A stretch of DNA of 64,000 nt from Acutalibacteraceae bacterium (GCA_045534895.1 JAZSKN010000033.1:890-64889), one strand, 5' to 3'. Shown: positions 12,000 to 60,500, counted from the first letter of the stretch. Program-made: numbers and translations. Notes: generated from the sequence alone by a model not told the origin.

Positions 12000-12021
12000 G
12001 ATTTTGCAAAGGAGTGATGAT

Positions 12022-12276: not shown

Positions 12277-12288
12277 GGGGGATTTAGA

Positions 12289-12723: not shown

Positions 12724-12740
12724 ATAATCAAAAATAAAAA

Positions 12741-12768
12741 CCTCAAGTCTAACTTTCGAGACTTGAGG
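12741..12768. terminator. Bidirectional intrinsic terminator between convergent genes
   Basis: A 10-bp stem cctcaagtct/agacttgagg is flanked by an A-run and a T-run. Confidence 0.7.
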
Positions 12769-12770
12769 TT

Positions 12771-13016
12771 TTAATCATTTATGCCCAGTAACCAGTTAAC
12801 AGTTACTTTTAATATTTTTGCAAGTTCACGTAGTTCGTAATCGGCGACAAAACGTGTGCCTATTTCTATTCGTGATATACTATCGCGTTCAATTATAATT
12901 CCGTTAATCTGCAGTTGTGCCGCTAAATCGCTCTGCGTAAGGCGCAGTTTACAGCGTGCTTCGTGAATACGTTCGCCGCAAATATTTTTCTTGCCGTTAT
13001 AGTCATAAATCTTCAT
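12771..13016 (-). CDS. XRE-family HTH transcriptional regulator
   Basis: 81 aa. ERIHEARCKLRLTQSDLAAQLQ..ISRIE.G is an HTH_3 motif. The gene is divergent from the SPFH operon. Confidence 0.8.
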   Translation of the reverse strand: MKIYDYNGKKNICGERIHEARCKLRLTQSDLAAQLQINGIIIERDSISRIEIGTRFVADYELRELAKILKVTVNWLLGIND

Positions 13017-13042
13017 ACAATTATTTTCTCCCCTAATATGCT

Positions 13043-13105
13043 AAAGATAAGAAATTATCTTGACTTTAGCATATTTCGACCTTATAATTGTGTTAAAGAT
13101 AAGAA
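13043..13105 (+). promoter_or_regulatory. Promoter of the SPFH operon bracketed by repeated AAAGATAAGAA boxes
   Basis: TTGACT (13060-13065), 17 nt, then TATAAT (13083-13088). The 11-mer AAAGATAAGAA occurs at 13043-13053 (with an inverted partner ttatctt) and at 13095-13105. Confidence 0.55.
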
Positions 13106-13136
13106 TTTTTGATTTTTGCGAATAGGAGGTAATTTT

Positions 13137-37590: not shown

Positions 37591-38229
37591 ATGGAAAATT
37601 TAATTAAAAAAATTAGTGATATTGGCGTCGTGCCTGTTATCAAGATCGACAATGCAAAAGACGCGGTGCCACTTGCTGCCGCACTTAAAAAAGGCGGTTT
37701 GTGCTGTGCTGAAGTAACATTCAGAACCGATGCCGCAGAAGAGGCTATTCGCCTTATAGCGAGCGAGTATCCCGACTTTTTGGTTGCTGCAGGTACTGTA
37801 CTTACACCAAAACAGGCAGATGCTGCGATGGCCGCCGGTGCATCATTTATTGTAAGTCCGGGTCTTAATCCTGTTGTTGTTAAACACTGTATCGAAAAAG
37901 GCTATCCCGTAATTCCCGGTGTTTGCACTCCAAGCGAGGTTGAAATGGGAATGTCATTAGGCTTAAGCTATCTTAAATTCTTCCCTGCAGAAGCTGCGGG
38001 CGGTGTTAAGATGATTAAGGCAATGGCGGCTCCATATACTAAAATTAAATTTATGCCTACAGGTGGCATTGGTCCTAAAAACCTTGCAGAATACCTAAAC
38101 TGTAAAGCAATTTTTGCTTGCGGCGGTAGCTGGATGGTTCCCGGCGATATGATTACCGATGGTAAATTTGATGAAATTGAAAAGCTTACACGTGAAGCTG
38201 TAGAACTTTTAAAGGAGATTAGAGGATAA
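37591..38229 (+). CDS. eda: KDPG/KHG aldolase
   Basis: VPVIKID....A..LA.AL..GG....EVTFRT and the Schiff-base context LKFFPAE are typical of Eda. It is paired with kdgK. Confidence 0.85.
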   Translation: MENLIKKISDIGVVPVIKIDNAKDAVPLAAALKKGGLCCAEVTFRTDAAEEAIRLIASEYPDFLVAAGTVLTPKQADAAMAAGASFIVSPGLNPVVVKHCIEKGYPVIPGVCTPSEVEMGMSLGLSYLKFFPAEAAGGVKMIKAMAAPYTKIKFMPTGGIGPKNLAEYLNCKAIFACGGSWMVPGDMITDGKFDEIEKLTREAVELLKEIRG

Positions 38230-39251
38230 TGGCAAGAATTATTACTTTTGGTGAAATTATGTTGCGTTTGGCACCTAACGGTTATTATCGTTTTTTTCAA
38301 AATGACCAAATGCAAGCAACCTTTGGCGGTGGCGAAGCAAACGTTGCTGTTTCGCTTGCAAACTATGGTATGGACAGCGCTTACGTAACCAAGCTTCCTA
38401 AGCACGCTATAGGTCAGGCTGCTGTTGATTCGCTTCGCAGTTTCGGTGTTGATACTTCAAACATTACTCGCGGTGGCGAGCGCGTTGGTATTTATTATCT
38501 TGAAAAAGGCGCATCACAGCGTGGCTCTGTATGCATTTATGACCGTAAGTATTCTGCTATTCAGCAGGCTACTAAAGAAGATTTTGACTGGGATAAGATT
38601 TTTGACGGTGCTGACTGGTTCCACTTTACAGGCATTACACCGGCCCTTGGTCCCAATGTTGTAGAAATTTGCCGTGAGGCTTGTATCGCAGCTAAAGCAA
38701 AGGGTGTTAAGATTTCTTGTGACCTTAACTACCGCGGTAAGCTTTGGACACGTGATGAAGCTCGCGCTGCAATGACCGACCTTTGCCAATATGTTGATGT
38801 TTGCATTTCTAATGAAGAGGATGCTAAGGACGTATTTGGCATTGAGGCAGAAGGTACCGATATTTATGGCGGTAAGCTTAATCACGAGGGATATAAATCG
38901 GTTGCTAAGCAGCTTGCTGACAAGTTCGGCTTTGAAAAGGTTGCAATAACACTTCGTTCTTCTATATCTGCGAGTGACAATGACTGGGCAGGTATGCTTT
39001 ACGACGGCGAAAACTATTGCTTCTCTAAATCATATCACTTGCACATTGTTGACCGTGTTGGCGGCGGTGATTCTTTTGGCGGTGGACTTATTTATTCAAT
39101 ACTTACAGGTAAGTCTACACAAGAGGCTATCGAATTTGCTGTTGCAGCATCGGCTCTTAAGCATTCTATTGAAGGCGACTACAACCGTGTTAGCGTTTCT
39201 GAGGTTGAAAAACTTGCAGGCGGCGACGGTTCAGGTCGTGTACAGCGATAA
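38229..39251 (+). CDS. kdgK: 2-dehydro-3-deoxygluconokinase (PfkB family)
   Basis: The PfkB motifs GGGEANVAV and VDRVGGGDSFGGGLIY are present. The start overlaps the eda stop. Confidence 0.85.
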   Translation: MARIITFGEIMLRLAPNGYYRFFQNDQMQATFGGGEANVAVSLANYGMDSAYVTKLPKHAIGQAAVDSLRSFGVDTSNITRGGERVGIYYLEKGASQRGSVCIYDRKYSAIQQATKEDFDWDKIFDGADWFHFTGITPALGPNVVEICREACIAAKAKGVKISCDLNYRGKLWTRDEARAAMTDLCQYVDVCISNEEDAKDVFGIEAEGTDIYGGKLNHEGYKSVAKQLADKFGFEKVAITLRSSISASDNDWAGMLYDGENYCFSKSYHLHIVDRVGGGDSFGGGLIYSILTGKSTQEAIEFAVAASALKHSIEGDYNRVSVSEVEKLAGGDGSGRVQR

Positions 39252-39266
39252 AAAAATATAATTAAT

Positions 39267-39305
39267 CGGCGGTCTTACTTTATCGTAAGACCGCCGAATT
39301 TTTGT
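39267..39305. terminator. Bidirectional intrinsic terminator (kdgK / prophage repressor)
   Basis: A 12-bp stem cggcggtcttac/gtaagaccgccg has flanking A- and T-runs. Confidence 0.75.
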
Positions 39306-39313
39306 TTTATAAC

Positions 39314-39928
39314 TTATAATATTACACTTGTAAAGCCTACCGCCTTGCCCAAAATGCGAATTTGGTTTAACTGCTCGCCGGTGTATACAAACGGTTGATA
39401 TTTTGAATTGCAGGCAACAAGTGTAATTGTGTTATCGGATATATAAACACGCTTTAACGTTGCCTCTTCATCAATAAGTACAGCGGCAATTTCACCGTTT
39501 TCTACTGTAGGCTGTTGACGTATATAAACAATATCGCCGTTATGAATACGAGCATCGATCATACTGTCACCTTTACATCGCAGTGCAAAGTCAGCGCATA
39601 TATTTTCGGGTACGGTAACTTCGCCTTCAAGATTTTCATTTGCAAGCACAGGTGTACCGCAAGCAATGGTACCCACAATTGGAATACGGTTCATTTTTGG
39701 AAAAGAAATAACATTGGTATATGATAAATAATCATCATCTATAAAAGAAGATGGGGGAACGTTAAAAATCTCAGACAGTTTTTTTATGGTTTCTCTTTTA
39801 AGGTTTTTTACTGTACCACACTCCCACTTTTGAACTGCGGCGCGTTGAACGCCAAGCATAGAACCAAGCTCTTCTTGTGAAAAGCCGTGTTCGGTACGTA
39901 GTTTTTTAATAAGAGCGCCTATATTCAT
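39314..39928 (-). CDS. Phage CI-like repressor (XRE HTH + S24 LexA-type peptidase)
   Basis: N-terminal HTH_3 (LIKKLRTEHGFSQEELGSMLGVQRAAVQKWE). The C-terminal S24 domain has a CKGDSM Ser and a ATLKRVY Lys. Confidence 0.8.
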   Translation of the reverse strand: MNIGALIKKLRTEHGFSQEELGSMLGVQRAAVQKWECGTVKNLKRETIKKLSEIFNVPPSSFIDDDYLSYTNVISFPKMNRIPIVGTIACGTPVLANENLEGEVTVPENICADFALRCKGDSMIDARIHNGDIVYIRQQPTVENGEIAAVLIDEEATLKRVYISDNTITLVACNSKYQPFVYTGEQLNQIRILGKAVGFTSVIL

Positions 39929-39951
39929 AATATCAGTCCTTTCTGCTTGTA

Positions 39952-40149
39952 TTGTATCTTAAATTTATCACAATGTCAAGGAAAAGATAAATAAATCTAA
40001 AAAAAAGATACAAAACGCTTGACAAGAATAAAAATTTGTGTTATTATTGTATCGCAAAAAGATACAAGAGGTTGTTTTTTTAAAGAAAATTGTACATAAA
40101 ATGCGCGCAAATATTTTTTTAATCTCTTTGTATCTTCAAAAGATACAAA
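39952..40149. promoter_or_regulatory. Divergent immunity region: six AAGATACAA half-sites and a rightward promoter
   Basis: Half-sites are at 39952-39960 (rc), 40005-40013, 40047-40053 (rc) with 40059-40067, and 40128-40136 (rc) with 40140-40148 (10-3-10 palindrome). The promoter is TTGACA 40019-40024, 17 nt, TATTAT 40042-40047. Confidence 0.6.
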
Positions 40150-40174
40150 TGTATTATATACATCCAAGGAGGAA

Positions 40175-40585
40175 TTGAAAATTAGCAAAGTATATAGATG
40201 TATTAATTGTGATACATATTTTAAAAATGCAAAAATTTATGAGGAAAGGCATGGCTTTGATGCACCGCCATATGAAAGGGTAGCATATTGCCCTAAATGT
40301 AAGCAAGCAAATTTTGTGGAATTTAATTTAAAGGCTGACAAGCTTGAGTTTGCAGATCGTTTACTTGCAGCAATAATGTTTTTTAACGCTTTTAAAAGTG
40401 AGTTAACCGACCTTTTAGGTGTTGGGTGCAATAATGAGAATTTTAATAACGGATTAGACATACTGTGCGAAATTATAACAGAGATGTTTGAATTTACTTC
40501 TTTAAGTATGCAACAAAAAATTTTGACTATGACAACGCGCAATGATTTTGAAAGGATATTAATTTATTTAAAGGGTGGATTATGA
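40175..40585 (+). CDS. Phage early protein with CxxC..CxxC zinc ribbon
   Basis: TTG start after an AAGGAGG RBS. CINCD...CPKCK. No family recognised. Confidence 0.5.
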   Translation: MKISKVYRCINCDTYFKNAKIYEERHGFDAPPYERVAYCPKCKQANFVEFNLKADKLEFADRLLAAIMFFNAFKSELTDLLGVGCNNENFNNGLDILCEIITEMFEFTSLSMQQKILTMTTRNDFERILIYLKGGL

Positions 40586-40842
40586 AAACTATAGAAAAAT
40601 GCATATGTTCAAAAGAAATTTCAGCACATGGCTTGTGCGAAGAATGTCTTATGCTTTTGAAGGTAAAAAAGTGTAAAAGCATTGCCTTAATTGAAAAAAT
40701 ACGAGCCAATTACAACAAGACACACAGTCAGTATAAAACATACGGTCAATTTGTTGCTATGGTTGAGGAAATTAGTAGGAGGAAAAAGAATTTTGACAAT
40801 AGAAGAAAAAAAGCAAATACTACGAAAATACGGACAAATTGA
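40582..40842 (+). CDS. Small Cys-rich basic phage protein
   Basis: ATGA overlap with the previous gene. CICS..HGLCEEC and a basic tail. Confidence 0.45.
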   Translation: MKTIEKCICSKEISAHGLCEECLMLLKVKKCKSIALIEKIRANYNKTHSQYKTYGQFVAMVEEISRRKKNFDNRRKKANTTKIRTN

Positions 40843-44203: not shown

Positions 44204-45091
44204 ATGACAAATACAATTCAACACGCAAGTAAATATGCAAACGAACTTGATAAGATGATAGTTCAGGAATCTAAGACAGGCTTTTTGGCCGACGGTAAGT
44301 TTAAGGCGCGCTTCACAGGCGCAAAAACGGTAAATATGCCACAGATTGACTTTGACGGTCTGGGTGACTATAGCCGAAAGGACGGTTACTCTAAGGGTGG
44401 CACAAACTTTACATACACCGCTTACGAGCTTAATCAGGAACGCAGTAAGCAGTTAATTATTGATGCGCAGGATGCTGACGAAATGGGTGTTTCCTCGCTT
44501 GTGGGTAAAATGGTTGGCGAATACACTCGAACAAAGGTGAATCCCGAAATAGATGCCTATGTGCTTTCAAAGCTTTACAACGTTGCAAACGAAAAGAACC
44601 ATGTAGATACCTATGACAGCACTGCAGTGGTTGAAACAATGCTTGAATGCATTAATAAGGCTGAGGCGGCAAGCGGCTACACAAACGAAAAAATGGTGGC
44701 TTTTGTAGACCCTGTTATGTATGCCGCGCTTATGACAAGCGACAAGCTTCAGCACAGCATTACCGTAAACGAATTTGAGCAGGGCGCTGTAAACGTTAAG
44801 GTAAAAGAGCTTAACGGTTGCGCTATTATTCCTGTAGCGGCAGACCGTATGCGTACCGAGTACAGCTTTAATGATACGGGCTTTGCGGCAAGTGCTGATG
44901 CGGGCTATATTAAGGCTATTGTAATGCCAAAGGGTGCGGCATCACTTGTAAAAAAGGTAGATAAGGTAGACATCTACACACCCGATATGGTACAGGATAT
45001 GGATGCATATAAGATTAACTTTAGACTATATTATGATCTATTTGTTACCGAAAATAAAAAGGACCTTGTTTTTGCAATTAGTGGCGAATAA
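44204..45091 (+). CDS. Putative major capsid protein
   Basis: 295 aa with a strong RBS, followed by a strong terminator and positioned after the scaffold-like gene. The family was not identified from sequence alone. Confidence 0.5.
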   Translation: MTNTIQHASKYANELDKMIVQESKTGFLADGKFKARFTGAKTVNMPQIDFDGLGDYSRKDGYSKGGTNFTYTAYELNQERSKQLIIDAQDADEMGVSSLVGKMVGEYTRTKVNPEIDAYVLSKLYNVANEKNHVDTYDSTAVVETMLECINKAEAASGYTNEKMVAFVDPVMYAALMTSDKLQHSITVNEFEQGAVNVKVKELNGCAIIPVAADRMRTEYSFNDTGFAASADAGYIKAIVMPKGAASLVKKVDKVDIYTPDMVQDMDAYKINFRLYYDLFVTENKKDLVFAISGE

Positions 45092-45101: not shown

Positions 45102-45133
45102 AAGCGGTTGCCGTGTGGCGACCGCTTTTTTAA
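45102..45133 (+). terminator. Intrinsic terminator after the capsid gene
   Basis: aagcggttgccgtgtggcgaccgctt followed by TTTTTT. A near-copy of the hairpin lies at 52114-52140. Confidence 0.75.
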
Positions 45134-45254
45134 ATGAAAAATGAAAAATGAAGAATTGTTGTGTTCGCCGTAGGCGAACGAGGGTAAAAGGGTATTGTCG
45201 GTTGTTTCGTGGTGAGGTAGCTCGCAACGACACCTCATCCGTCACTATGTGACA

Positions 45255-45281
45255 CCTTCTCCTCAAGGAGAAGGCTTTTTT
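45255..45281 (+). terminator. Second intrinsic terminator, 24 nt upstream of the toxin gene
   Basis: The stem ccttctcc-tcaa-ggagaagg is followed by cTTTTTT. Confidence 0.6.
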
Positions 45282-45304
45282 AGAGAGGATGAAGATATGT
45301 AGTA

Positions 45305-48058
45305 ATGGGAAAAGAGAAGAAAAAATGGTATCAAACAGGAGAGTTTGAAGATGGATATCAGTTTGGTGATATTTTTAGGACAGTAAAAAACAGTATAAGC
45401 GGTAAAGAGGAAGAAGTAGAAAAGGTTAAGAATATTACAGAAAAAAGTGGAACGAGTGCACAAATTCCTTTTGCGGCGGTTAAGGATGGTAGATTATCGG
45501 TTGATGTACCGGCACAGACTTTTGGATGGAAAAATGATGCTGAACGTGCGAGATTTAAAGCAGAGCACCCAATGGAGTATGCGGCTACAGGTGGTGTGAA
45601 GCTTGATACAAATGTTTTGTCGAAAAATAATATTCAACTGACTACAGAGCAACAAAATATTTTAGAAGAAGCACGGAAAAAAGATGAATATATCAAAAGC
45701 TTACAATATAAACTTGATGTTATAAATGTGAAAAACATAGAGAAAAAACGCAAGAACAGTCATTTGATTGCAGATAGCGAAATAGAATCCGAATTGAGAA
45801 TTAAATGGCTCAATGGCGTTGTGAATATGGATGAGCTTGCAACACAACTAAAAAAAGAGAATGATATTTATAATGCAAAAATTAAATTTGATAACGGTGA
45901 TGCGATAAGTCTAAATGAACGATTGTTGTTAACAGAAAACGGCGGAGAAAATTATACGGAAGGAAACACGAATAAAATTATTGACTTTTTGGCGCAAGAT
46001 AATCCAGAGAATATAAATGCTCGCGATACTGCAGAGAAAGCAAGAAAAAAGCAAAAAAATAATATACCGCTGACTCAAGAGGAAAAAACAGATATTTCTA
46101 ATTATGAAACGCGACGGCACATACAAAAAAGCATTCTTGAAAATAAATATGCTTTGGGTAGCGATATAAAGAAAAACAAAGAAAATATGAATACAATCGC
46201 CGCAATATCCTTATATAATGATGCGATATACGATACTGGAATTAATAAAACATTTAATCAAATGCAGTTATATATCAACACCGGATTCACAAGATATTTC
46301 CAAGATAGCATTAATACTGCAGAGATTTTCTTAACCGAGGACGCATATCACAAGGGTTTGACCGGTAACCGAGGGTCTAATGTAATTAAAAATGAACCCA
46401 AAAGCATGTACGAAATTGCGAATAGTGCTGTTGGTGAATATTTTGTGCAAAATGATATGAAGTTTAATAAGTTTGTACAGGACACAACAGTAAATCTGGC
46501 CAATAATACTATACCAATGTTGTTAAGCGGTGTAAGTGGTGGCGCTTCTATGGTGGCTAGTGGCTTGTCCGTTTTTGGAAGTTCGTATCGTGAAGCAGTG
46601 GAAATGGCACCGGATGTTGAAGAATGGCGATATTGGCTATACGCCGGAATGAATACCTCGGTTGAGTTGTGTATGGAAAAACTTTTGAGTGGTGATAAGA
46701 ATATTGCGGCGAATACGGGAAGTGAATTTACCGATGCTATGTTTAAGATGTTAACCAAAAACATCTCCAACAAAATGCTATTGGGCGGAGTGTATATACT
46801 GTCAAATAGCACGGGAGAGTTTGTTGAGGAAACTATACAAGGGCTTTTATCACCAGTTATGCAAGAATTAATTTTAGGCGTAGATGCTACATCTATATTG
46901 TCATCAAATAAAAATGAGCAATTAAACGCAATGAAAAATGCATTGTATGATGGTATGGTTGGGTTTGTATCGGCAGGTGTAACAACCGGTATGTTTATAA
47001 ACAGTACCATAGAGGGTATAGAACAAAGAAGAATAGTTGGAGAGTATTATAATAAATTATTTAACAATCTAAACATTGACTCAAAAAATGTTGCATTGTA
47101 TTTAAAAGAAATTTCGAATGGCGAAGGCATAAGATTATATAAATCGGCAAAAAAAGTTTTACAAGGCGATACTTCTAATGATGCAGTAGCAAATATGATG
47201 ATAGACGGTTTCGAACAAAGTCTTGAATCACAAAGGTTTATATATACAAAAATAGGTGAACAGTTAAATCGAAATAATAGGTATATAGTGTATAGTCTTA
47301 TAAAACAATATGACAAATTAAGTCAAAGTGAAATAGAACTTTCGAAAAGTATACATAAAACATATAATGAACTGATTAATACAAGTGAAAATACGAGCAG
47401 AGAGACATTTAATTATTTGGTAGGAAAACTTTCGACAACGATGGATGCTGTGTTGCCGAGAACTATTATGGCGTCGGAGATTAAGAAAAAAATTAATGCT
47501 GACATTAAAGAAAACCAAATGAAAAATAATAACAGTTCAATTGATGAAGTAGCAGTTGTTGATGGGATTTGGGAGGATTCACCAAATAAATCGAAAAATG
47601 TTGTCGAAAAAGGGCAGTTGGAAAGTGTTGAAAAGACAAAAGAAAATGGTATAATAGAGAAAACAAAGGTTCTAACGCTTGATGATTTGACAAAAGATGT
47701 TTTGAAAACAAAGCCATTGTATTCTCCTGTGCCAGAGAGGTGGATGCAAAATGGCGGAATTATAGAAATTGCAAATGATGGAAATTGGATATATACAAAC
47801 ACTGATGGAATAAGTGTTAAATATGTAGATGGATATCCAGATTTTAAGGGAGCAGGCTTAGTTATTCAAGAAGTCGATGTTGGAGAATTTGTAAGTCGCG
47901 AAGCAGACAAGAAAAAAGCAAAAGAATTAGTGCAGCAAAACCCAAATACAGAATGGCATCACCCGGCAAACAGTAATAAACTTCAAGAAATAGATGCAAA
48001 TATTCATAAACAATTTACTCATATTGGTGCAATTTCAAAAAATAAAAAAGGAGATTAG
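45305..48058 (+). CDS. Phage polymorphic toxin: 917-aa trunk with C-terminal WHH (HNH/EndoVII-fold) nuclease tip
   Basis: The C-terminus GYPDF...EVDVGEF..READKKKAKEL..NTEWHHPANSNKLQEIDANIHKQFTHIG fits the WHH toxin family. The tip follows the GIWEDSPNKSKNVVEKGQLE junction, and a SUKH immunity gene is 3 nt downstream. Confidence 0.7.
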   Translation: MGKEKKKWYQTGEFEDGYQFGDIFRTVKNSISGKEEEVEKVKNITEKSGTSAQIPFAAVKDGRLSVDVPAQTFGWKNDAERARFKAEHPMEYAATGGVKLDTNVLSKNNIQLTTEQQNILEEARKKDEYIKSLQYKLDVINVKNIEKKRKNSHLIADSEIESELRIKWLNGVVNMDELATQLKKENDIYNAKIKFDNGDAISLNERLLLTENGGENYTEGNTNKIIDFLAQDNPENINARDTAEKARKKQKNNIPLTQEEKTDISNYETRRHIQKSILENKYALGSDIKKNKENMNTIAAISLYNDAIYDTGINKTFNQMQLYINTGFTRYFQDSINTAEIFLTEDAYHKGLTGNRGSNVIKNEPKSMYEIANSAVGEYFVQNDMKFNKFVQDTTVNLANNTIPMLLSGVSGGASMVASGLSVFGSSYREAVEMAPDVEEWRYWLYAGMNTSVELCMEKLLSGDKNIAANTGSEFTDAMFKMLTKNISNKMLLGGVYILSNSTGEFVEETIQGLLSPVMQELILGVDATSILSSNKNEQLNAMKNALYDGMVGFVSAGVTTGMFINSTIEGIEQRRIVGEYYNKLFNNLNIDSKNVALYLKEISNGEGIRLYKSAKKVLQGDTSNDAVANMMIDGFEQSLESQRFIYTKIGEQLNRNNRYIVYSLIKQYDKLSQSEIELSKSIHKTYNELINTSENTSRETFNYLVGKLSTTMDAVLPRTIMASEIKKKINADIKENQMKNNNSSIDEVAVVDGIWEDSPNKSKNVVEKGQLESVEKTKENGIIEKTKVLTLDDLTKDVLKTKPLYSPVPERWMQNGGIIEIANDGNWIYTNTDGISVKYVDGYPDFKGAGLVIQEVDVGEFVSREADKKKAKELVQQNPNTEWHHPANSNKLQEIDANIHKQFTHIGAISKNKKGD
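47564..47633 (+). repeat. Trunk/tip junction repeat, copy 1 (in the expressed toxin gene)
   Basis: gggatttgggaggattcaccaaa...ttgtcgaaaaa...cagttggaaagtgttgaaaa shares identical runs of 23, 11 and 20 bp with copy 3. Confidence 0.8.
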
Positions 48059-48060
48059 TT

Positions 48061-48657
48061 ATGGCTTTTAATAAGTATGGAAAATTAGATGTTTCTATGG
48101 TTAATCAATTGGATGGAATATTAGGTTTTCAAGTGCCACAAGAATATAAAGATTTTTTGATTAATACAAATGGCGGACGTTTTGATTTTGAAGATGAACA
48201 TTATATAGTTGTAAAAAATAAAAAAATATGGATAGACGTTCTTTATGGGAACCAAAAAAATAAACGTTCAAGTTTGTTATTTTGGAATAATGAATATGGT
48301 GATGAAATTCCTGAGAATTCCATCATAATAGGTGATACACAAGATCATAACTTTTTAGTATATCTGTGCGCAGGTGAACAAAAAGGTATTTATTTGTGGG
48401 ATGATACAATGTGTGTTTGTGGTTTATCAGGTGATGGTAGGAATGCTTATTTTATTGCGAATGATATGAATGAATTTTTTAATATGTTTAATATTCAAAC
48501 CAAATTATTTTCTTCAAATGCTACTATATCAAATATAGATAAAAAAATCGGAGAAAGTAACATATTGTATAAGGCGCCAAACGAAAAGAAAATGCAAGTT
48601 ATAGACGCGATAACATTTAAGCGATTTATGCATCGTTGTGAGGATTTTATAATTTAA
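48061..48657 (+). CDS. SUKH/SMI1-KNR4 family immunity protein
   Basis: QVPQEYKDFLINTNGGRF...IIIGD....FLVY......GIYLWD is the SMI1/KNR4 pattern. It lies directly after the WHH tip. Confidence 0.75.
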   Translation: MAFNKYGKLDVSMVNQLDGILGFQVPQEYKDFLINTNGGRFDFEDEHYIVVKNKKIWIDVLYGNQKNKRSSLLFWNNEYGDEIPENSIIIGDTQDHNFLVYLCAGEQKGIYLWDDTMCVCGLSGDGRNAYFIANDMNEFFNMFNIQTKLFSSNATISNIDKKIGESNILYKAPNEKKMQVIDAITFKRFMHRCEDFII

Positions 48658-49064
48658 TATAATTGTTGGATTTTTAATGAAAAAGATTTGGATATAATAG
48701 TTATGTATTATCCAGAGTAGGAGTAATTATTGAAATAATAAGAGACAATGTTGATAAATTAATTGATAAAACAGATTACGAATATAAAAATGAATTTTCT
48801 GATAAAAAGGTGAATACTTTTTTTAATTATTGGCTATTTTTTGATCAAAAAGAATCAGAAATTGTTAAAATGTTAGGTATACCGTTAGATGTTGTGGTGT
48901 ATAGTAAATGGTATTGGAGCGAGCGATATAGGGTGAGTTATGAAGAATTATATAACGAGGAAATTCCAGGTGATCTTTAGGACACAAGGGGACGGTTCTA
49001 TTGTGCCTGCCCTTGTGTCTGTTGGGGTGGTATTAACTGGGCCGACGTAACATATTCTGCTTTA

Positions 49065-49769
49065 TTGGGCGGATTATCTTCTGGTGTATTTGAGTTATCG
49101 CCGAGTGTTTCATCAAATATTAAAAATAATAAGCTTAATCCAAATGAAGTTATTGAAGGTATTTGGGAGGATTCACCAAAAAGAGATAAAAATATTGTCG
49201 AAAAAAGTCAGTTGGAAACATTTGACAACAATAGTAATGATTTGTATAATAACAGTGAAATAAGATTATTAACGAGCGGAAATAGTGGCGGAAAAGCCAA
49301 ACCATATTCTGCAGATAATATTCCGCAATTTATAAATCAATATCTATACAAATTAAAAGATTATGGTGAGATTTTAGAAGTGAAAGAACCACCAAGTTTT
49401 TCTGATATCAGTTTAATGTCAAGGCAATCAGGAACTGAATTTGCATCAATAACCATAGGAGATAATAACTACATTATAAAGGGAGACAATAAAGGTACGC
49501 CAATTTCTAGTGAAATGTTTAAAAAAATTAGAGAAAACAAAGGAATATTAAATTGCCATTCACATCCTTTTATTGATGATTTTAGGGTTTCAAAAGAGGA
49601 TATTAATTTAGCCAAGCAGATGTATTGGCAAAAACAATTTTATATTGTTTCTCCCGATGGTAAATTTGCAACATATAATAGTAACGGAATCATTGATATA
49701 GATATTATAAGAAAAGAACTTGATGATTTGGATTTGGAATTTTATGCGGAATTACTCAGGGAGGATTAA
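49065..49769 (+). CDS. Orphan toxin module 2 (trunk end + junction + JAB/MPN-like tip); no credible start
   Basis: The frame is open from 48981 and the nominal TTG has no RBS. It encodes ..TYSALLGGLSSGVFELSPSVS..NPNEVIEGIWEDSPKRDKNIVEKSQLE, then a tip with CHSHPFIDDFRVSKED (H.H.x8.S..D, JAMM-like). Confidence 0.55.
   Translation: MGGLSSGVFELSPSVSSNIKNNKLNPNEVIEGIWEDSPKRDKNIVEKSQLETFDNNSNDLYNNSEIRLLTSGNSGGKAKPYSADNIPQFINQYLYKLKDYGEILEVKEPPSFSDISLMSRQSGTEFASITIGDNNYIIKGDNKGTPISSEMFKKIRENKGILNCHSHPFIDDFRVSKEDINLAKQMYWQKQFYIVSPDGKFATYNSNGIIDIDIIRKELDDLDLEFYAELLRED
49158..49218 (+). repeat. Trunk/tip junction repeat, copy 2
   Basis: 58 bp (49161-49218) are identical to 50878-50935. Confidence 0.85.
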
Positions 49770-49770
49770 T

Positions 49771-50049
49771 ATGCTAAGTGAAGATGTAGCAATTATTAAA
49801 GGTTTAAAGAAAATTGCTGAGATTTTTGGAATTGAGTATGTAAAAAAACATAAAGATGCGCCTATATGTAGGAGAAGAGAAGGTGATAAACTCATTTTTT
49901 CGTGTCTATATGAAGATGAAGATCAAAGGCCTGATTTAAAACCCGATCACTTAGGGTGGACGGTTTTTGCTGTGGTTGAAGTGAATTTAAAAAAAGAAAC
50001 AGTTAATATTATAGATTATGTTTTACCGGATGGAACCTCAAAACGATAG
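49771..50049 (+). CDS. Putative immunity protein for module 2
   Basis: 92 aa with a GGGAGGA RBS. The ATG lies 1 nt after the toxin-module stop. No family recognised, so the call is positional. Confidence 0.5.
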   Translation: MLSEDVAIIKGLKKIAEIFGIEYVKKHKDAPICRRREGDKLIFSCLYEDEDQRPDLKPDHLGWTVFAVVEVNLKKETVNIIDYVLPDGTSKR

Positions 50050-50114
50050 AATATTAGTAACACAGGGGATTAACACGCTAACCGTCCTCCGTGTTACCTG
50101 AACAAGCATTTTAA

Positions 50115-50176
50115 AAAAAGACAGGGTGGAAGCCTTGTCTTTTAATTTTGGGATTCAAAAAGTGCGACGAGTGTTA
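50115..50176 (+). repeat. 62-bp direct repeat, left copy (contains a terminator hairpin)
   Basis: aaaaagacagggtggaagccttgtcttttaattttgggattcaaaaagtgcgacgagtgtta has one mismatch to 51903-51964. Confidence 0.85.
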
Positions 50177-50304
50177 AGTCGTTTTTAAATTCTGTTGATA
50201 GTGAATTAAATGATTTTGTTGCTCGTGTAAAAAACGGTAGTAAGAAATTTGAACGCTATAAGATTTCAGAGGTAAGCGCACGCGAAGCGGATGATATTAA
50301 AAAT

Positions 50305-51426
50305 TTGCTTGGTATTGATGTTCAGGGTTACACACATAATATAAACAGTGATGGGATAAGGCATATACTTAAACGACATGGCGAAAAGGGACAGCAAGAT
50401 AATACGATGTCGAATGTTGACGATGTAGCTCGTATTGGTTGGGTTATAAATAATTACGATGCGGTTGAATTGATAATAGAAGATGGCAAGCAATCTTATA
50501 GTACGGGATTTGCAAATAAAAACAATAGTCCGGCACCGCAAATAAGATATAGCAAAAAAATAAACGGCACCTACTATGTAGTAGAAGCCATTTTTGAAAA
50601 CAAAAACAATAAACTATGGGTACAATCTGCATATTTGAGTAAAAATAGAGAAGACGTTACGCAAGTCCCCGATGCAGCAGATAAGCCCCCCGAGGTAACG
50701 GCTAAAACCGACCTTCCTTCTCCGTCTTCCAAATTTAGTTTATCACAGGACGTAAAAAAAGTCAATAATGATTACATAAGTAAAGAAGCAAGCTCGCAAG
50801 AAGAGAATGCTTCTTTTTTTGATTATAATTTAGAAAAAACCACACCAAAAATTAATCCCGATGAAGTGATTTCGGGGATTTGGGAGGATTCACCAAAAAG
50901 AGATAAAAATATTGTCGAAAAAAGTCAGTTGGAAAGTGTTGAAAATGTTGGGGATAACTGGTATAATGACAATAATATAATAACTGATGGTAGCCATTTG
51001 GTTAATGACAAGTTAAAGCCGAATGTAAAATATAAGTCCGGTGAGTATGACTATATTTATGCAACCGATCAATCAGGAAGAATAGTCGATTTACATACTG
51101 ATGAATTACAATATACTGAAAGAGATGAGCGCTTAAAACATAATGCTAATTCGCTTGGTAAAGAAATTGGCGATCATGCCGGTCATTTGATAGGAGATCG
51201 ATATGGTGGTTCACCGGATATAGATAATATTGTTTCGCAGTCAGGACTTGTAAATTTAAGCGAATATAAAAAAATAGAAAACATTTGGGCTAGAGCGTTA
51301 GATAGCGGACAAAAAGTTGGCGTCGATATTAAAGTACAATATGAAGGTAATAGTATGAGGCCGTCCTCATTTATTGTTAATTACACTATTGACGGAATTA
51401 AAACGCAAACAACCATAGAGAATTGA
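50305..51426 (+). CDS. Orphan toxin module 3: PBECR-like domain + junction + EssD/YeeF-type (Endonuclease_NS_2) nuclease tip; no credible start
   Basis: The frame is open from 50146 with no RBS. READDIKNLLGIDVQGYTHNINSDGIRHILKRHGEKG is typical of PBECR domains in polyvalent proteins. It is followed by GIWEDSPKRDKNIVEKSQLE and then GDHAGHLIGDRYGGSPDIDNIVSQ...W..AL..G..V.V.I...Y.G.S.RP. Confidence 0.6.
   Translation: MLGIDVQGYTHNINSDGIRHILKRHGEKGQQDNTMSNVDDVARIGWVINNYDAVELIIEDGKQSYSTGFANKNNSPAPQIRYSKKINGTYYVVEAIFENKNNKLWVQSAYLSKNREDVTQVPDAADKPPEVTAKTDLPSPSSKFSLSQDVKKVNNDYISKEASSQEENASFFDYNLEKTTPKINPDEVISGIWEDSPKRDKNIVEKSQLESVENVGDNWYNDNNIITDGSHLVNDKLKPNVKYKSGEYDYIYATDQSGRIVDLHTDELQYTERDERLKHNANSLGKEIGDHAGHLIGDRYGGSPDIDNIVSQSGLVNLSEYKKIENIWARALDSGQKVGVDIKVQYEGNSMRPSSFIVNYTIDGIKTQTTIEN
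50875..50945 (+). repeat. Trunk/tip junction repeat, copy 3
   Basis: See copies 1 and 2. Confidence 0.85.
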
Positions 51427-51440
51427 TGGAGGAAATAGAT

Positions 51441-51887
51441 ATGGCTAAAGTTTTTGAAGATTATTTTTCGGAATTGCAAGCGGATATGGTGGGCATCTGT
51501 ATGGAATACGTAGAGTATCAGGCAGATACAATATACATATATTGTTGTTGTGAAGGTAGAATGATTCATAGTGATTATTTTTATGAGATTGATGGACGAA
51601 TTGTACAAAAACAGCAAGTTAATGATGTTTCTTTTAGAAGCACTGCTATTCCTCAAAATGAAAGCACGTGTTTAAATATATTGATAAACGATGTGCGTGA
51701 ATTAAAAAAGCTTTGCATCGAATACGATAGACCAATGCCAACTCAAATTAAGATGATATATAACGTCAAGCAAAATTCACTTGATGCTAAGTATAAATAC
51801 GACAATCAATGGTTGAATCATAAAACTAAATCATCACCTGATATTTTTGTTGAGTGGTATGAGGAAGTTAAAAATTCAAAGAATTAA
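51441..51887 (+). CDS. DUF600/YezG-like immunity protein for module 3
   Basis: 148 aa with a TGGAGGA RBS. FSELQADMVGICMEYVEYQADTIYIYCCCEG...SDYFYEI resembles the DUF600 immunity proteins that pair with YeeF/EssD nucleases. Confidence 0.5.
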   Translation: MAKVFEDYFSELQADMVGICMEYVEYQADTIYIYCCCEGRMIHSDYFYEIDGRIVQKQQVNDVSFRSTAIPQNESTCLNILINDVRELKKLCIEYDRPMPTQIKMIYNVKQNSLDAKYKYDNQWLNHKTKSSPDIFVEWYEEVKNSKN

Positions 51888-51902
51888 ATATGTGTGATAT
51901 TG

Positions 51903-51964
51903 AAAAAGACAGGGTGGAAGCCTTGTCTTTTAATTTTGGGATTTAAAAAGTGCGACGAGTGTTA
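51903..51964 (+). repeat. 62-bp direct repeat, right copy
   Basis: See 50115-50176. Confidence 0.85.
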
Positions 51965-52107
51965 CATATTCTGCGTTGCTTGGTGGATTGTCTTCGGGTA
52001 TATTTGAGCTTTCGCCAAGTGTTTCGACAAATAATCAAAACAATAAACTAAATCCAAATGAAGTGATTTCGGGGATTTATAACCATATAACAATTAAACA
52101 GTATTAG
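51964..52107 (+). pseudogene. Tip-less trunk-end remnant
   Basis: It encodes TYSALLGGLSSGIFELSPSVSTNNQNNKLNPNEVISGI and then breaks exactly where WEDSP should start (..GIYNHITIKQY*). Confidence 0.65.
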
Positions 52108-52164
52108 TCAAATAAGCGGTTGTCAATTGGGCGACCGCTTATAATTTTTAAAAAGGATGATTAA

Positions 52165-54018
52165 ATGAACAATATTAAATTAAATGTAAAAACAATTTGG
52201 TCAGAGTATGAAAACGGTCAGCAATACAAAAACAGTATTGGCGACAAGGGTATTCACGACCAAGCAAGAATAAACGAGCGATTTTTTGTTGGTGATCAGT
52301 GGCACGGTGTAACCGCCGGAAACGAAAAGCCGCTTACGCGAAGAAATATAATTAAAAGAATTGGTGAATATAAAATGGCGACCGTAGGTAGCGCTCCTAT
52401 CGCAGTAAATTATAGCGCAGAGGGTGTGCCCGATGTTACAGATATTGAGGCAATATCGGATGTAAAAGCGCAAATGATGCAAGGCAATTTACCCGAAGAA
52501 AAAGTAAACGATACCGAAATATCGGTTATTATGGGCGCATTAACCAATTATTTTAAAATAACTGCCGAACGCCTTAAATATGACGATAAAAAGGATATGA
52601 TGCTTAAAAATGCGTATATTTCGGGCACGGGTATTTTGTATACATATTGGGACAGCAAAATTAAAACCGGTCTTTATGCCGATATGGAAAGAAAGGTGGC
52701 AATTACGGGTGATATTGCCTGTGAGGTTTTAGATATTGAAAACGTGGTTTTTGGTGACCCTAATAATGAGGACGTTGAAAGTCAGCCATATATTATAATT
52801 GCGCGTCGATTAGACGTAGATGCGGTAAGGCGCGAGGCAGAGCTTTACGGTCAGCCTATAGAGAATATTTTACCCGACGGCACAGACGGTTATTACCGCA
52901 ATGCTGGTGATCGCGGCGAGGACGAGCCAAATGATTCAAACCGAGTTACTGTTATTACAAAGCTGTACAAAAAATATGATGATAACGGCAACCATACCGT
53001 TTACGGTAAAACCGTAACAAAAAACGCCGTTGTAAGACCCGAATGGAATTTGCTGATACACCGTTACCCAATAGCAAAATTTGTTTGGGAAAGAAGAAAA
53101 AGCTGTGCATATGGTGACAGTGAGGTAAGTTACCAAATACCAAACCAAATCGCGCTAAATCAGGCGCATTCGATATCGGTGTGGGCTATGCAAAATACCG
53201 GCATGCCAAAAACCATTATTAACGGTGATCTTATACCCGACGGTATTTCAAATGATCCCGCCGAGGTTATAAAAATTTACGGTAACGCCGAGGATATGGT
53301 GAGCGCAATAAGATATGTTACGCCGCCGAATTATGGCGCGGCATTTATTAATTTTACCGATGCATTTGCTCAAAACATTCTTTTTGATAACGGCGCAAAC
53401 GATGCGGCGCTTGGTAATTTGCGTCCTGACAATGCAACGGCTATTGTACAGGCGCGCGAAGCGGCGCTTGCACCCATGCAGATGTATCAAAACCGTTTTT
53501 ACAGCGCAAACGAGGACGTTGCGCGCATATGGGCGGATTTTTGGATAACTATGTACGGAAAAAGATCGATAAAAATTAATGACAATGGCAACATAAGCTA
53601 CATAGTTTTCGATGCTGACCGCTATAAAGACTTGGTTATTACCGCTAAAATAGATGTTGGCGCATCAACTCTTTGGAGCGAGGCTGTGTCGATATCTAAT
53701 TTAGGTAATTTGTTGGCAAGTGGCATGATAAGCTTTACCGAGTATCTTGAACGTTTGCCAAAAGGATTAATTCCCGACGTTAATGGTCTTATAAACGCAA
53801 GAAAACAACAAGAACAGCAGGCACAGGCAATAAATATGCCGCAAGAGGCAACGACCAATAGTATAACCAACGGTGAATTGCTTGCTGATTTACAGGCAAA
53901 TAACCCGCAAATATATGAGCAATTAATGAATCTACCGCCGGAGGATCAAGAATATGCTATGCAAATGATACGCGACAGCGCAAACATTAATACGCAAGAA
54001 GCATTTAAAATGAATTAA
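52165..54018 (+). CDS. Putative portal protein
   Basis: 617 aa with an acidic C-terminus and an N-terminal ERFFVGDQWHG-type block. The call rests on size and position and was not verified by profile search. Confidence 0.5.
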   Translation: MNNIKLNVKTIWSEYENGQQYKNSIGDKGIHDQARINERFFVGDQWHGVTAGNEKPLTRRNIIKRIGEYKMATVGSAPIAVNYSAEGVPDVTDIEAISDVKAQMMQGNLPEEKVNDTEISVIMGALTNYFKITAERLKYDDKKDMMLKNAYISGTGILYTYWDSKIKTGLYADMERKVAITGDIACEVLDIENVVFGDPNNEDVESQPYIIIARRLDVDAVRREAELYGQPIENILPDGTDGYYRNAGDRGEDEPNDSNRVTVITKLYKKYDDNGNHTVYGKTVTKNAVVRPEWNLLIHRYPIAKFVWERRKSCAYGDSEVSYQIPNQIALNQAHSISVWAMQNTGMPKTIINGDLIPDGISNDPAEVIKIYGNAEDMVSAIRYVTPPNYGAAFINFTDAFAQNILFDNGANDAALGNLRPDNATAIVQAREAALAPMQMYQNRFYSANEDVARIWADFWITMYGKRSIKINDNGNISYIVFDADRYKDLVITAKIDVGASTLWSEAVSISNLGNLLASGMISFTEYLERLPKGLIPDVNGLINARKQQEQQAQAINMPQEATTNSITNGELLADLQANNPQIYEQLMNLPPEDQEYAMQMIRDSANINTQEAFKMN

Positions 54019-57564: not shown

Positions 57565-60500
57565 ATGGATGATATTAATATATCAAAATTTCGTCTTGGT
57601 GGCGATACTGCTTTAAGTAAAGAGTCACCGGTAAATTTAGATAAATTTAGGGTATTAGATACCAAAAGTTATGATTATTATACAAAGCAAAATCAAATAA
57701 ATGCCGTGGGTATGGATACGCTTAAGGATGACTTGCTTAAGGTCAATAACAGCATACAAAGCGCGTATAGTAATTGGCAAACTAAAGAACAAATGAAAAA
57801 TACGCAGTCTGATATAAAGTCAATGTACACAAGGCTTACGACCTTACAAAACCTTTGTAAAACAAATGGTATTACAGACGGCGAAAAAGAGCTTTCTGAA
57901 GTGGTAGAGGCTTATAAGTCGACACTCGACGGTTGGAACGATTTAGCATCGTACTATAATAAGTTTAAAACGGCTGATGCATATAATAAGAACAACTTGC
58001 AAATTAAAAAACTTAATGATGAATATAATAAGGCGAAAAATGATGACGTTAATGCCGTAAAAGGTGAACTTAATGCTTGGGAAAAAGAATTAGAAAAAAT
58101 ACTTAACGGTAAAGAATGGTTGTCAAATGACGAATGGCGAACAAACAACGATGGTAGCTTTACTATACCGTACAGCGCTACGCATTTGCCCGAGGTGTTT
58201 GCCGGCAAAACCCTTTCACAAGCAGAAGAAATTGTAAAAAACAAAAGGGCATATCTTGAAAAGGCAATAAGAATTCAAGAAGATGAAAAATATTCTAAGC
58301 TTGTTGAGTCGGGCGAAGGCGAAAAGGGTTATAAAAAATGGCTTGAATATGCTAAAGATACAAATGATTATAAATATAATAACGCTACAAAAAAACGGAC
58401 GACCTTTGCGTTGAGCAAGCCTATTCGCGCTGTGTCTGATAATATTATTTTTAATAAAATGCTTGATACAAGCCACGAGCGACCTAAAGATGATTGGACT
58501 AAGAAGGAGCTTTATCAATTTGGGGCAAGATGGGATGAAAATAACCCCGATATTGCTTACAATTATGCAATTCGAGTTAATAACGAAAATGCAATAGAGC
58601 AAAAAAATATAGCCAAACAAAAGGCGGCGGATTTTGCTACCAAAAATTTTGCTACAGGTGCAATTGCAACCATTGGCAGTATTTTGGCAAAAACGCTTGC
58701 GGTATCAGACTATGTTGACGACCTTACCGATAAAGCGGCACATAGAAACGCAATTGTTGAAGAACCTAATTTAACGCCTTTTGAATGGGCAACCGCATCT
58801 ACGGGTGCTATTAGTGAAAAACTTAATCAAATGGGTACGCTTGACAGCAACATACCCATTATAGGCGGTAAGGGTTGGGGTGACCTTTATGCTTTGGGCG
58901 GAAGCATAGCCCAAAGCGCCGCGCTTACTGCAATTGGAGGACCTTGGCTTACTGCTGTTTCGTTTTTTGGTCAAGGCGCTGCAGATGCGGTTAACGATGC
59001 TACCGAACGAGGCGCTACAATTGACGAGGCTTTGTGTTACGGTACAATTGTTGGTGCGGCAGAAATGGTATCGGAATATATTGGCGCCGACAAGCTGTTA
59101 AAGGTTGGCAAGGGTGAAATACTGTCTGCGTTTAAAGAAATTTTAAAGCAGGCGGGCGCAGAAGGCATAGAAGAAATGTTTTCTGAAACAATAAATAATA
59201 TTGCCGATAACGTTATTATGGGTGACAAAAGTAGGTTTAATCAATTGGTAAATCAGTATAAAGCGCAAGGCTTTAGCGAGCAAGCGGCGGCAAGTATGGC
59301 ATGGACAAAGACAATAGAAGAAATTGCCTACAGCGGATTAAGCGGTATGTTATCTGGCGGCGTGCACGCGGCACCCGTCGTTATATTTAATAAAATAAAT
59401 AAAGCTTACCTCGATATGCCCTTAACAAACGGTTATGTGGACGTATCGGTTATAGATTTTTCTAACACAGTTACTAATACCGTTAAAACAAACAACGGCA
59501 ATCAAGTTAATTGGAATGATTTGGATTTTGATCAGCAAACAGCAATAATTGGTGTAAGTAACTTTGCCAAGAATATGGGGTTAAACGTTACCTGGATTTC
59601 CGACGGCGCTAAGCGCGGTATGAACGGCGCTTATGAAATTACCGGCAACAAAATGCTAATTGATGTTAACGCCGGCAAAACTAAGCTTAACGGCAATTCT
59701 TTTGAAAGCACCATAATACCTACAGCCTCGCATGAGATGGTACACTGGGTTAAAAATAAATCACCCGAAATTTATGCAAAACTTGAGAATTTTGTATTTG
59801 AAACATTTGCGTTACAGGGAATAAGCAATGAAAGCGTAGTCGCCAAGCGAAGAACATTAATGGAAAAAGCGCATAAAGATGTTGCTTATACCAATGAAGA
59901 TGTAATAGAAGAAGTAGTAGCAAGAGCCTGTGAAGATATGCTACAAGACAGCAAAAAATTTAAAAAGTGTTTATACACAATGAATACCCTGCAACAAAAA
60001 ACGGTTTTAGGTAAGCTTACAGAGACCTTTAACAGCATTAAAAGATGGATTAATAATTTTTCGTCCGAATCGCATTCAAATTCTGACGAAGCACAAATAA
60101 TCCGCAAAGATATGGTCAGGTTTAAACAACAAATTAATCTTTACGAAAAAATGCTCATTGATGCTTCACAACTTGGTGAGTATAATGATTTTTACGACAC
60201 ATCAAGCACAAACTCGACACAAATTAACAAAATTAAATATTCAGACATAAGTACCGACGGTTTAACAAAACCTAATATATACGAATATGCAAAAAGAATA
60301 AAGCAGAAATATAATTCAAATATAGACGAAGGTGTAATAATGGATAGACTTAAAGCAATTACAAACAATAAGAATTTGCCACAAGATTCATTACTGCAGG
60401 CAGTTTATAATTATAGTGAGAACGAGATAGGCAGGCTTAACCAAACACAACGGTTAATTAATGAATTAGCGGTCGAAATAGCGCAAGGCATTAAACCTGT

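Follow-up and report, generated by a model that had tools for sequence, protein, structure and literature searches.

The toxin array between the capsid and portal genes

The stretch of DNA analysed here (the window) comprises 64,000 nucleotides of an Acutalibacteraceae bacterium (GCA_045534895.1, JAZSKN010000033.1:890-64889) and holds part of a prophage-like element with small and large terminase genes, a scaffold-like gene, the major capsid protein (MCP) gene, a toxin region and the portal gene, in this order. The toxin region opens with a gene for a 917-aa polymorphic toxin, behind which lie two start-less toxin/immunity cassettes, referred to as orphans 2 and 3, and a fourth, tip-less fragment (Table 1). 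A short junction segment separates trunk and tip in the full-length gene and recurs in both orphans, and direct counting places its GIWEDSP motif at 47564, 49158 and 50875, identical to the coordinates in a preliminary description of this DNA. The recount likewise agrees exactly with the 58-nt identical run reported for copies 2 and 3 and with the runs of 23, 20 and 11 nt reported for copies 1 and 3, and run counting gives 20, 11 and 10 nt for copies 1 and 2. The three junction peptides are GIWEDSPNKSKNVVEKGQLESVEK, GIWEDSPKRDKNIVEKSQLETFDN and GIWEDSPKRDKNIVEKSQLESVEN. A repeat search of the window groups the surrounding DNA into family D1 (47541-47669, 49135-49263 and 50852-50980) and finds two further pairs, D2 (49047-49164 and 51961-52078, 80% identity) and D3 (62 nt, 50115-50176 and 51903-51964, 98% identity).

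Each junction copy is followed by a different toxin domain, as the preliminary description had claimed: tip 1 matches WHH/Colicin-DNase, tip 3 matches Endonuclea_NS_2 and tip 2 belongs to no family, and BLASTP finds no similarity among the three past the junction. Tip 1 passes the Pfam cut-offs for Colicin-DNase/WHH when scanned alone, and for tip 2 the Pfam and PDB searches were empty apart from a faint DUF4329 hint. The small open reading frame (ORF) with a strong ribosome-binding site (RBS) said to follow each tip is present in all three cases, with GGAG(G) 7-8 nt before the ATG at 48061, 49771 and 51441. The orphan frames (48981-49769 and 50146-51426) are indeed open and contain no start codon with an upstream Shine-Dalgarno sequence; that of orphan 3 includes, besides the tip, a foreign trunk end of about 220-230 codons in which a PBECR3 domain lies. 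Fragment 4, which had been described as breaking off where WEDSP should begin, tracks copy 3 in the alignment as far as ...GTGATTTCGGGGATTT (...GGGATTT at 52078) and diverges at 52078/52079. As a side observation, the frame of the small ORF that ends cassette 1 (48810-48980) is open further upstream, behind a GGAG at 48720, and weak homologues of this ORF stand at the equivalent position in two related loci, L013 and L020 (L-numbers denote related loci and P-numbers related proteins).

Table 1. Features of the toxin region and its flanks, numbered from the first nucleotide of the window
Feature	Position	Strand	Remarks
MCP gene	44204..45091	+	phrog_422, 1.3e-69; left flank of slot
MCP terminator hairpin, GCGGTTGCCGTGTGGCGACCGC and T-run	45104..45131	+	Left edge of variable slot
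Toxin-gene leader, structured, several hairpins	45132..45304	+	Fold z-score -5.5; terminator-like match
Full-length 917-aa polymorphic toxin gene	45305..48058	+	Conserved N-terminal peptide (aa 1-30), trunk, junction, nuclease tip
Junction copy 1	47525..47659	+	Junction hidden Markov model (HMM) 1.2e-22; GIWEDSP at 47564; 33-mer at 47603-47635 with 3 mismatches
Promoter-like site P1	47628..47655	+	TTGAAA-16-TGgTATAAT, within junction copy 1
Tip 1, Colicin-DNase/WHH (HNH-type) nuclease	47660..48058	+	Pfam, 27.4 and 25.6 bits
Predicted immunity gene 1 (imm1), SUKH-1 / SMI1_KNR4	48061..48657	+	Domain match
Small open frame ending cassette 1	48810..48980	+	Mechanical ORF
Hairpin GACACAAGGG...CCCTTGTGTC closing cassette 1	48981..49019	+	Read from sequence; resembles second hairpin type of L016/L020
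Orphan 2 stub, 45 codons of foreign trunk end	49023..49157	+	P0009/P0010 type; no start codon
Junction copy 2	49119..49253	+	GIWEDSP at 49158; 15-nt core of 33-mer at 49197-49211
Promoter-like site P2	49222..49250	+	TTGACA-17-TATAAT (12/12)
Tip 2, no family match	49254..49769	+	68% identical to C-terminus of full-length P0005
Predicted immunity gene 2 (imm2), 92 aa	49771..50049	+	GGAGG 7 nt before ATG
Cassette terminator AAGACAGGG-loop-CCTTGTCTTTTAATTTTG and 30-nt tail	50115..50176	+	Repeat D3, copy 1
Orphan 3 stub, foreign trunk end with PBECR3	50177..50835	+	Pfam PBECR3 6.3e-16; no start codon
Junction copy 3	50836..50970	+	GIWEDSP at 50875; exact consensus 33-mer at 50914-50946
Promoter-like site P3	50939..50967	+	TTGAAA-17-TGgTATAAT
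Tip 3, Endonuclea_NS_2 nuclease	50971..51426	+	Pfam 3.1e-29
Predicted immunity gene 3 (imm3), 148 aa	51441..51887	+	GGAGG 8 nt before ATG
Cassette terminator, D3 copy 2	51903..51964	+	98% identical to copy 1
Fragment 4, P0009-type trunk-end stub breaking just before WEDSP	51961..52078	+	80% to 49047-49164
Pre-portal hairpin, near copy of MCP terminator	52112..52142	+	Right edge of slot
Portal gene	52165..54018	+	phrog_156, 2.8e-23; right flank of slot

The toxin family and the DNA of its junction

A search with the 917-aa protein returned 19 related proteins, nearly all of which begin with MGKEKKKWYQTGEFEDGYQFGD(I/V)FRT(V/I)KN; they comprise at least five unrelated trunks and tips of 105-190 aa, with a junction consensus of (A/E)(F/V)(V/I)(E/D)G(I/L/M)WEDSPN.SKN.VEKSQLESVEN. 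The preliminary description had treated the junction as the boundary at which tips are exchanged and had suggested looking for it in other prophages. The junction does separate a conserved delivery part from interchangeable tips, and it recurs: pooled proteins and loci yield 42 junction-bearing sequences with at least five unrelated trunks and 11 unrelated tip clusters, among them WHH/Colicin-DNase, Endonuclea_NS_2, GH-E, AHH and Ntox50, and at least 11 unrelated tip families are seen behind the junction. One tip on several trunks and several tips on one trunk both occur, the tip of P0002/P0006/P0009 being carried by different trunk types and tip 1 being 77% identical to the tip of P0007, whose trunk differs. 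The view of the downstream modules as orphan tip/immunity cassettes is borne out by their relatives behind full-length genes. P0005 combines the trunk type of the window with tip 2 (68%) and is followed in L029 by a 75% homologue of imm2, while tip 3 is 66-68% identical to the tips of full-length P0019 and of the L014 gene (68% for L014), with a 60% homologue of imm3 directly after the L014 toxin. Homologues of imm1 (75-77%) lie after the toxin in L012 and as a lone gene in L029.

Trunk and junction match no entry in Pfam or PHROGs, and a full HMMER scan of 1.8 billion representatives found only 47 trunk relatives. In that scan, aa ~175-740 of the toxin matched the first ~600 aa of proteins 2000-3000 aa long that carry Zeta, PBECR1 or Endonuclea_NS_2 domains; these giant relatives are devoid of the junction. 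Some relatives of the 917-aa protein carry PBECR3 or LPD3. The toxin genes of L012 and L015 (10983-) have the usual trunk and junction behind a different N-terminus without WYQTGEFEDGYQ, so the shared N-terminal peptide is not universal.

As judged from these sequences, prophage-like elements of gut Acutalibacteraceae carry a polymorphic-toxin family that had not been described before. The family has the organization by which polymorphic toxins are defined (PMC3482391), in that an N-terminal and central part is kept while the C-terminal toxin domains are unrelated; a putative cognate immunity gene directly follows the toxin (SUKH after tip 1, and imm2 and imm3 co-varying with tips 2 and 3), for which protection is predicted, and neighbouring stand-alone or 5'-truncated toxin cassettes can be recognised in the window and in L015, L025, L027 and L029. 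The position of the gene in the head module and the homology of its trunk to giant polyvalent proteins suggest, by analogy, delivery to another cell.

The VEKSQLESVEN block of the junction is encoded by a 33-mer, GTCGAAAAAAGTCAGTTGGAAAGTGTTGAAAAT, the nucleotide sequence of which is conserved beyond the level of its surroundings. In a sample of 19 junction copies from different loci, codons for the same amino acid within this block were identical in 1644 of 1692 comparisons (0.97), compared to 0.67 for the GxWEDSP block, 0.68 for the N-terminal motif, 0.58 for MCP (0.79 in its top 11-codon window) and 0.44 predicted from codon usage. Its Val codon GTC is invariant, though it makes up 1% of Val usage. 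Among genes that share the same trunk, codon identity is ~0.55 throughout, with two exceptions: the first 15 codons reach 0.83 and aa 768-782 reach 0.96. The 5' half of the 33-mer, GTCGAAAAAAGTCAG (47603-47617, 49197-49211 and 50914-50928), is a 15-nt core that is invariant across species. Neither the 33-mer nor the core occurs outside the three junction copies in the 64-kb window, for which shuffles expect 0-0.14 matches.

A consensus scan revealed that the three best plus-strand promoter-like sites in 44.9-52.3 kb are those of the three junction copies, where simulations expect 0.26 (P ~0.002); their predicted -35 and -10 hexamers score 11-12 of 12 in all three, and sites of the same strength elsewhere in the window lie mostly just upstream of genes. 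The pattern extends to other loci, where 16 of 22 junction copies have TTGAAA, a variable spacer of 16-17 nt and TATAAT or TATACT, usually with an upstream TG. Reading frame and spacing differ among them, the -10 being coded as NGII, [SN]DII, [SN]WYN, DLYN or SSIM. The -10 precedes nine of the ten tip families with DNA at hand and is missing from tip-less stubs. Kept across frames and spacings in this way, the -10 behaves as expected of a promoter, unlike a motif maintained for its peptide or inherited through a simple tract of recent transfer. The hexamers follow the sigma-A (sigma-70 type) pattern at homologous positions and constitute a predicted promoter, and the conserved junction peptide appears largely to be its translation. 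At the other end, each cassette closes with a conserved hairpin read as a terminator. The conserved stem, AAGACAGGG-loop-CCCTGTCTTTTAATTTTG, is confined to positions behind immunity genes, both in the window and in 12 other loci, with a loop that differs between loci and a stem that is nearly constant.

Arrays in related loci and the variable slot

Both orphans begin with trunk types that differ from the trunk of the window itself. By BLASTP, the orphan 2 stub is 78-80% identical to aa 561-606 of P0009/P0010, and the orphan 3 stub is 74% identical to P0014 and 73% to the L006 trunk, both with PBECR3-containing ends. The junction HMM detects arrays in five other loci (L015, L025, L026, L027 and L029). 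L027 holds, in this order, WHH with SUKH, AHH with Imm43, a stub and the portal gene; L025 holds three decayed junction copies with in-frame stops and has its trunk deleted; and in L015 a complete toxin gene is accompanied by a stub fused to the pre-portal hairpin. L026 carries two complete toxin genes in tandem, and before the second of them (3690-3987) the last ~93 capsid-gene codons, the terminator and the leader are duplicated, which is direct evidence that incoming DNA was added with its own upstream flank. At 10.3 kb the L029 array (3331-13596) is larger than that of the window and consists of two complete toxins, an Ntox50 orphan and five junction remnants, together with lone SUKH and Imm33 genes, one of them a 75% imm1 homologue without a toxin. 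The left ends of orphans fall at arbitrary trunk positions just after a terminator, and the right side is constant. These arbitrary left ends, the foreign stubs and the L026 duplication together argue that fragments from related elements were integrated additively and afterwards lost their 5' parts and decayed.

Phage GenBank records gave no DNA match and protein matches at the level of tips only, IMG/VR gave no junction match and one capsid-gene fragment, and the JGI metagenomes gave one short locus. Exact-sequence look-ups of imm2, imm3 and the 917-aa protein returned no record and hence no alternative contexts for the strain. Junction and N-terminal profile searches of a large protein collection yielded short fragments only, which are examples of stubs and not a census. 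A group II intron (considered for a GTGCG in D3), an integron, a shufflon and a diversity-generating retroelement were rejected as candidates, since no gene for a reverse transcriptase, integrase or invertase lies close by and the repeats are coding sequence in direct orientation.

A search with the MCP gene located 21 loci in species-representative genomes, all of them gut metagenome-assembled genomes of Acutalibacteraceae, "Ruminococcus" or Clostridia. In L001-L022, contigs that include the left flank all show the element at one chromosomal site, with the gene order PBP, aldolase and PfkB, then a CI-like helix-turn-helix/S24 repressor (minus strand), small genes, TerS, TerL, scaffold, MCP and portal; three further genes and then a giant gene follow the portal. 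The slot between MCP and portal is empty in six loci, where the portal RBS lies 62-98 nt from the capsid terminator and one hairpin separates the two genes, and holds only a small unrelated ORF in three more. Since the slot is thus empty in nine related loci (six bare, three with the small unrelated ORF), the toxin gene is dispensable. Inserts of 2.7-4.4 kb are found in six slot-spanning loci (L002, L012, L013, L015, L016 and L020), in five more a toxin gene comes directly after MCP and the contig then runs out, and in three the contig reaches no further than MCP; the slot of the window measures 7.07 kb. Near copies of the capsid-terminator hairpin stand at both edges of the slot (45104-45125 and 52112-52142), the two copies being identical in L015. 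They look as if insertions duplicate the capsid terminator or bring their own.

The leader of the toxin gene, which is conserved in L016, L020 and L026, has a terminator-like stem (45255-45274) with a T-run just before the toxin RBS. A two-codon mini-ORF (ATG-TAG) in it ends 2 nt before the toxin ATG, and in L013, L016 and L020 its counterpart ATGGAGTAATG overlaps the ATG. No Rfam family reached its gathering score anywhere in the window, and none matched the leader credibly; from its sequence features, the leader may exert antitermination or attenuation control of toxin expression.

Several observations concern the element at large. From 57565 to 64000, where it runs off the end of the window, a single frame of at least 2145 aa encodes a giant polyvalent-type protein with ART-PolyVal and Zeta-toxin/P-loop domains; its counterparts in L015 and L017 begin with a sequence similar to the toxin trunk. 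At the left boundary of the element (window 38229-40600), the repressor gene is flanked by divergent strong promoter-like sites at 39951-39979 (minus) and 40019-40047 (plus); a CI-like S24 repressor suggests SOS control. PfkB is 96-100% identical between genomes, versus 70-87% for TerL and MCP. No integrase or replication genes are visible in the element, which may be a site-specific prophage family or a domesticated particle system.

Interpretation and comparison with known systems

The explanation we favour, with moderate confidence, is that the accessory, hypervariable slot between MCP and portal accumulates promoter-tip-immunity-terminator cassettes, in which the orphans are 5'-truncated foreign copies kept for the expression of their immunity genes and as a reservoir of tips. 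The 917-aa gene is the one complete toxin, with two 5'-truncated foreign toxin-gene copies, their immunity genes and a stub behind it. The junction would play a dual role, as linker at a module boundary in the protein and, in the DNA, as a transcription start unit made up of A-rich upstream tracts, the -35 TTGAAA, a 16-17 nt spacer and TGnTATAAT. A lysogen should have its late (virion) operon switched off, and the toxin gene lies behind the capsid terminator and a leader with a terminator-like stem; the embedded promoter would keep the immunity genes on, those of the orphans included, while the late operon is silent. Such a promoter would explain why orphan immunity genes remain intact behind terminators, why lone immunity genes occur and why the junction is under synonymous constraint. 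DNA of related elements would be added or exchanged through homology at two conserved ends, the junction to the left and the terminator/portal side to the right, which would build arrays and occasionally swap the expressed tip; a deletion could also place tip 2 or tip 3 behind the trunk in the correct frame. Finally, gene position, the polyvalent-type trunk and the published view of MuF and polyvalent proteins suggest that the toxin may be packaged in the capsid via the shared N-terminal peptide.

Several points weigh against parts of this explanation. The promoter is predicted from a consensus match and from conservation, and the compared sequences are related, so that copy counts overstate the number of independent events. 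The GLLDDQ tip family (L001 12092, L025 285) has a poor -10, TTTGAT, and P0006 does not contain the VEKSQLESVEN block, its GLWDND... joining the tip directly. The conservation of GTCGAAAAAAGTCAG is stricter than that of a usual UP element, and the core may be UP-like, an operator or a recombination signal. A junction that serves as linker under little protein-level constraint fits an AlphaFold2 model with no secondary structure and a pLDDT (predicted local distance difference test) of 25-31 over aa ~738-787, between the helical end of the trunk and a folded tip (pLDDT ~76), but the model is of low confidence overall (mean pLDDT 57) and was built from a shallow alignment. The case for capsid delivery comes from gene position and from analogy with MuF and polyvalent proteins.

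The preliminary description had read the locus as a switchable array. Its tip boundary is upheld, while the designed switch is not, as the foreign trunk ends and the duplicated 3' end of the capsid gene in L026 favour additive integration. In programmed switching, RecA-dependent deletion between direct junction copies would join the trunk to the second or third tip and so change the deployed toxin. In its favour, the junction repeats share orientation and frame, no orphan tip or immunity gene is disrupted, P0005 of another strain has the same trunk type with tip 2, and evolved Salmonella Rhs orphans set a precedent (PMC3967940). However, perfect runs between the expressed copy and an orphan reach only 20-23 nt, and it is the two orphans that the 58-nt run joins; the deletion would be irreversible and would remove imm1; and the foreign stubs and the many loci with decayed stubs and lone immunity genes look more like accretion and decay. 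No recombinant is on record, in a search without power as the protein of this strain is recorded once only. We consider programmed switching unlikely. If, conversely, the orphans were non-functional leftovers and the junction conserved merely through recent copying, the decayed junction copies with in-frame stops and the deleted trunk of L025, as well as the commonness of tip-less stubs, would be expected. Yet both orphan frames of the window and their immunity genes are intact with RBS kept, a promoter-like site and a terminator are retained at each cassette, and the 33-mer and -10 are kept across species with trunks ~55% identical while neighbouring synonymous sites are not, which renders pure debris quite improbable.

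The nucleotide invariance of the 33-mer, including its rare codon, and the several stubs that break right after ...GTTGAAAAT could also point to the target of a dedicated site-specific recombination or nicking system of integron- or shufflon-like type. However, the stretch from the repressor to the giant gene shows no recombinase gene, the 33-mer is not palindromic, orphan left ends are arbitrary, and a promoter accounts for the pattern of -35, variable spacer and -10; such a system is very unlikely. Slightly less credible still is translation of the orphan tips from internal non-canonical starts, as toxin-antitoxin-like modules with their immunity genes. There is a promoter-like site before each tip and a Salmonella Rhs precedent (PMC7043789), but no in-frame start with a Shine-Dalgarno sequence follows the predicted transcription starts of tips 2 and 3. 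As the family is polymorphic and the DNA probably comes from a metagenome-assembled contig, strain variants of one toxin gene might have been chained into a false tandem array. We regard this as barely conceivable, given that several related contig names show a k-mer of 141 nt, longer than the 58-62 nt repeats, that each cassette has its own terminator, stub and immunity gene, and that arrays occur in five independent assemblies (L015, L025, L026, L027 and L029).

A bolder reading, which we view as a doubtful prospect, would make the element, instead of an ordinary prophage, a resident SOS-inducible particle system whose capsids load interchangeable nucleases via the N-terminal peptide and fire them at competitors, the 33-mer/promoter serving as the site of both cassette exchange and immunity expression. 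If true, it would constitute contact-independent, capsid-based delivery of polymorphic toxins by strains able to reprogram payload and immunity repertoire. Should the toxins be capsid cargo at all, phage particles would have a part in the warfare between gut strains and in their immunity repertoires.

In function, the Salmonella rhs main/orphan pair comes closest: conserved internal promoters lie by PxxxxDPxGL in both copies with different toxins adjoining (PMC7043789), and orphan activation by recombination has been selected experimentally (PMC3967940). There, as in the window, an orphan toxin/immunity module without its 5' part stands behind a full-length gene, and a conserved motif lies at the boundary of delivery part and tip, whereas Pfam and motif checks reveal no YD/Rhs repeats, PAAR/type VI secretion system (T6SS) features or PxxxxDPxGL in the window, the host of which is Gram-positive and the locus of which lies in a phage head-gene cluster, with a promoter predicted from sequence. 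Contact-dependent growth inhibition (CDI) loci (PMC3150448) similarly have start-less C-terminal/immunity arrays that keep a short conserved upstream stretch, and exchange tips between strains; in contrast to these, the window has no VENN motif, CdiB partner or neighbour, two-partner secretion (TPS) domain or filamentous haemagglutinin repeats, and its stubs come from several unrelated trunk types. Orphan immunity arrays are known to accumulate by sequential displacement (PMC5361080). In the T6SS of V. cholerae, effector-internal promoters drive the immunity genes (PMC3857813), which uncouples immunity from toxin expression by a promoter inside the toxin ORF, as proposed here; delivery system and host differ, and the predicted promoter of the window coincides with a recombination boundary and is kept across unrelated tips.

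Polymorphic toxins of phage heads are already known from the MuF type (PMC3482391, PMC5576092), where a polymorphic toxin with a downstream immunity gene likewise lies in the packaging/head module of a prophage and is presumed to travel inside the capsid and to be delivered alongside the DNA. The 917-aa protein, however, gives no MuF match (PF04233/PF06152) in Pfam and PHROGs, and its gene lies between MCP and portal, upstream of the portal instead of directly after it; the MuF paper (PMC5576092) mentions neither orphan arrays nor recombination. With polyvalent proteins of phages (PMC5512222), in which PBECR3 and LPD3 were defined as domains, the family shares a trunk common to giant proteins, relatives with PBECR3/LPD3 and a giant ART-PolyVal/Zeta protein in the same element. 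Polyvalent proteins are characterised by several effector domains per polypeptide, encoded among virion genes; the window protein has one recognisable effector domain, relatives add PBECR3 or LPD3, and its single C-terminal toxin, cognate immunity gene and conserved junction follow the logic of polymorphic toxins. A literature search returned no description of such arrays in phage head operons, and what is new here is the trunk/junction family, absent from Pfam and PHROGs, its setting in the head-gene cluster of prophage-like elements of abundant, poorly studied gut Clostridia, and an unusually clear dual-coding boundary. The array shows that phage morphogenesis operons, too, harbour the orphan-cassette logic known from CDI and Rhs loci, and the comparison suggests that the conservation of boundary motifs in polymorphic toxins may generally reflect transcription or recombination signals, not protein function.

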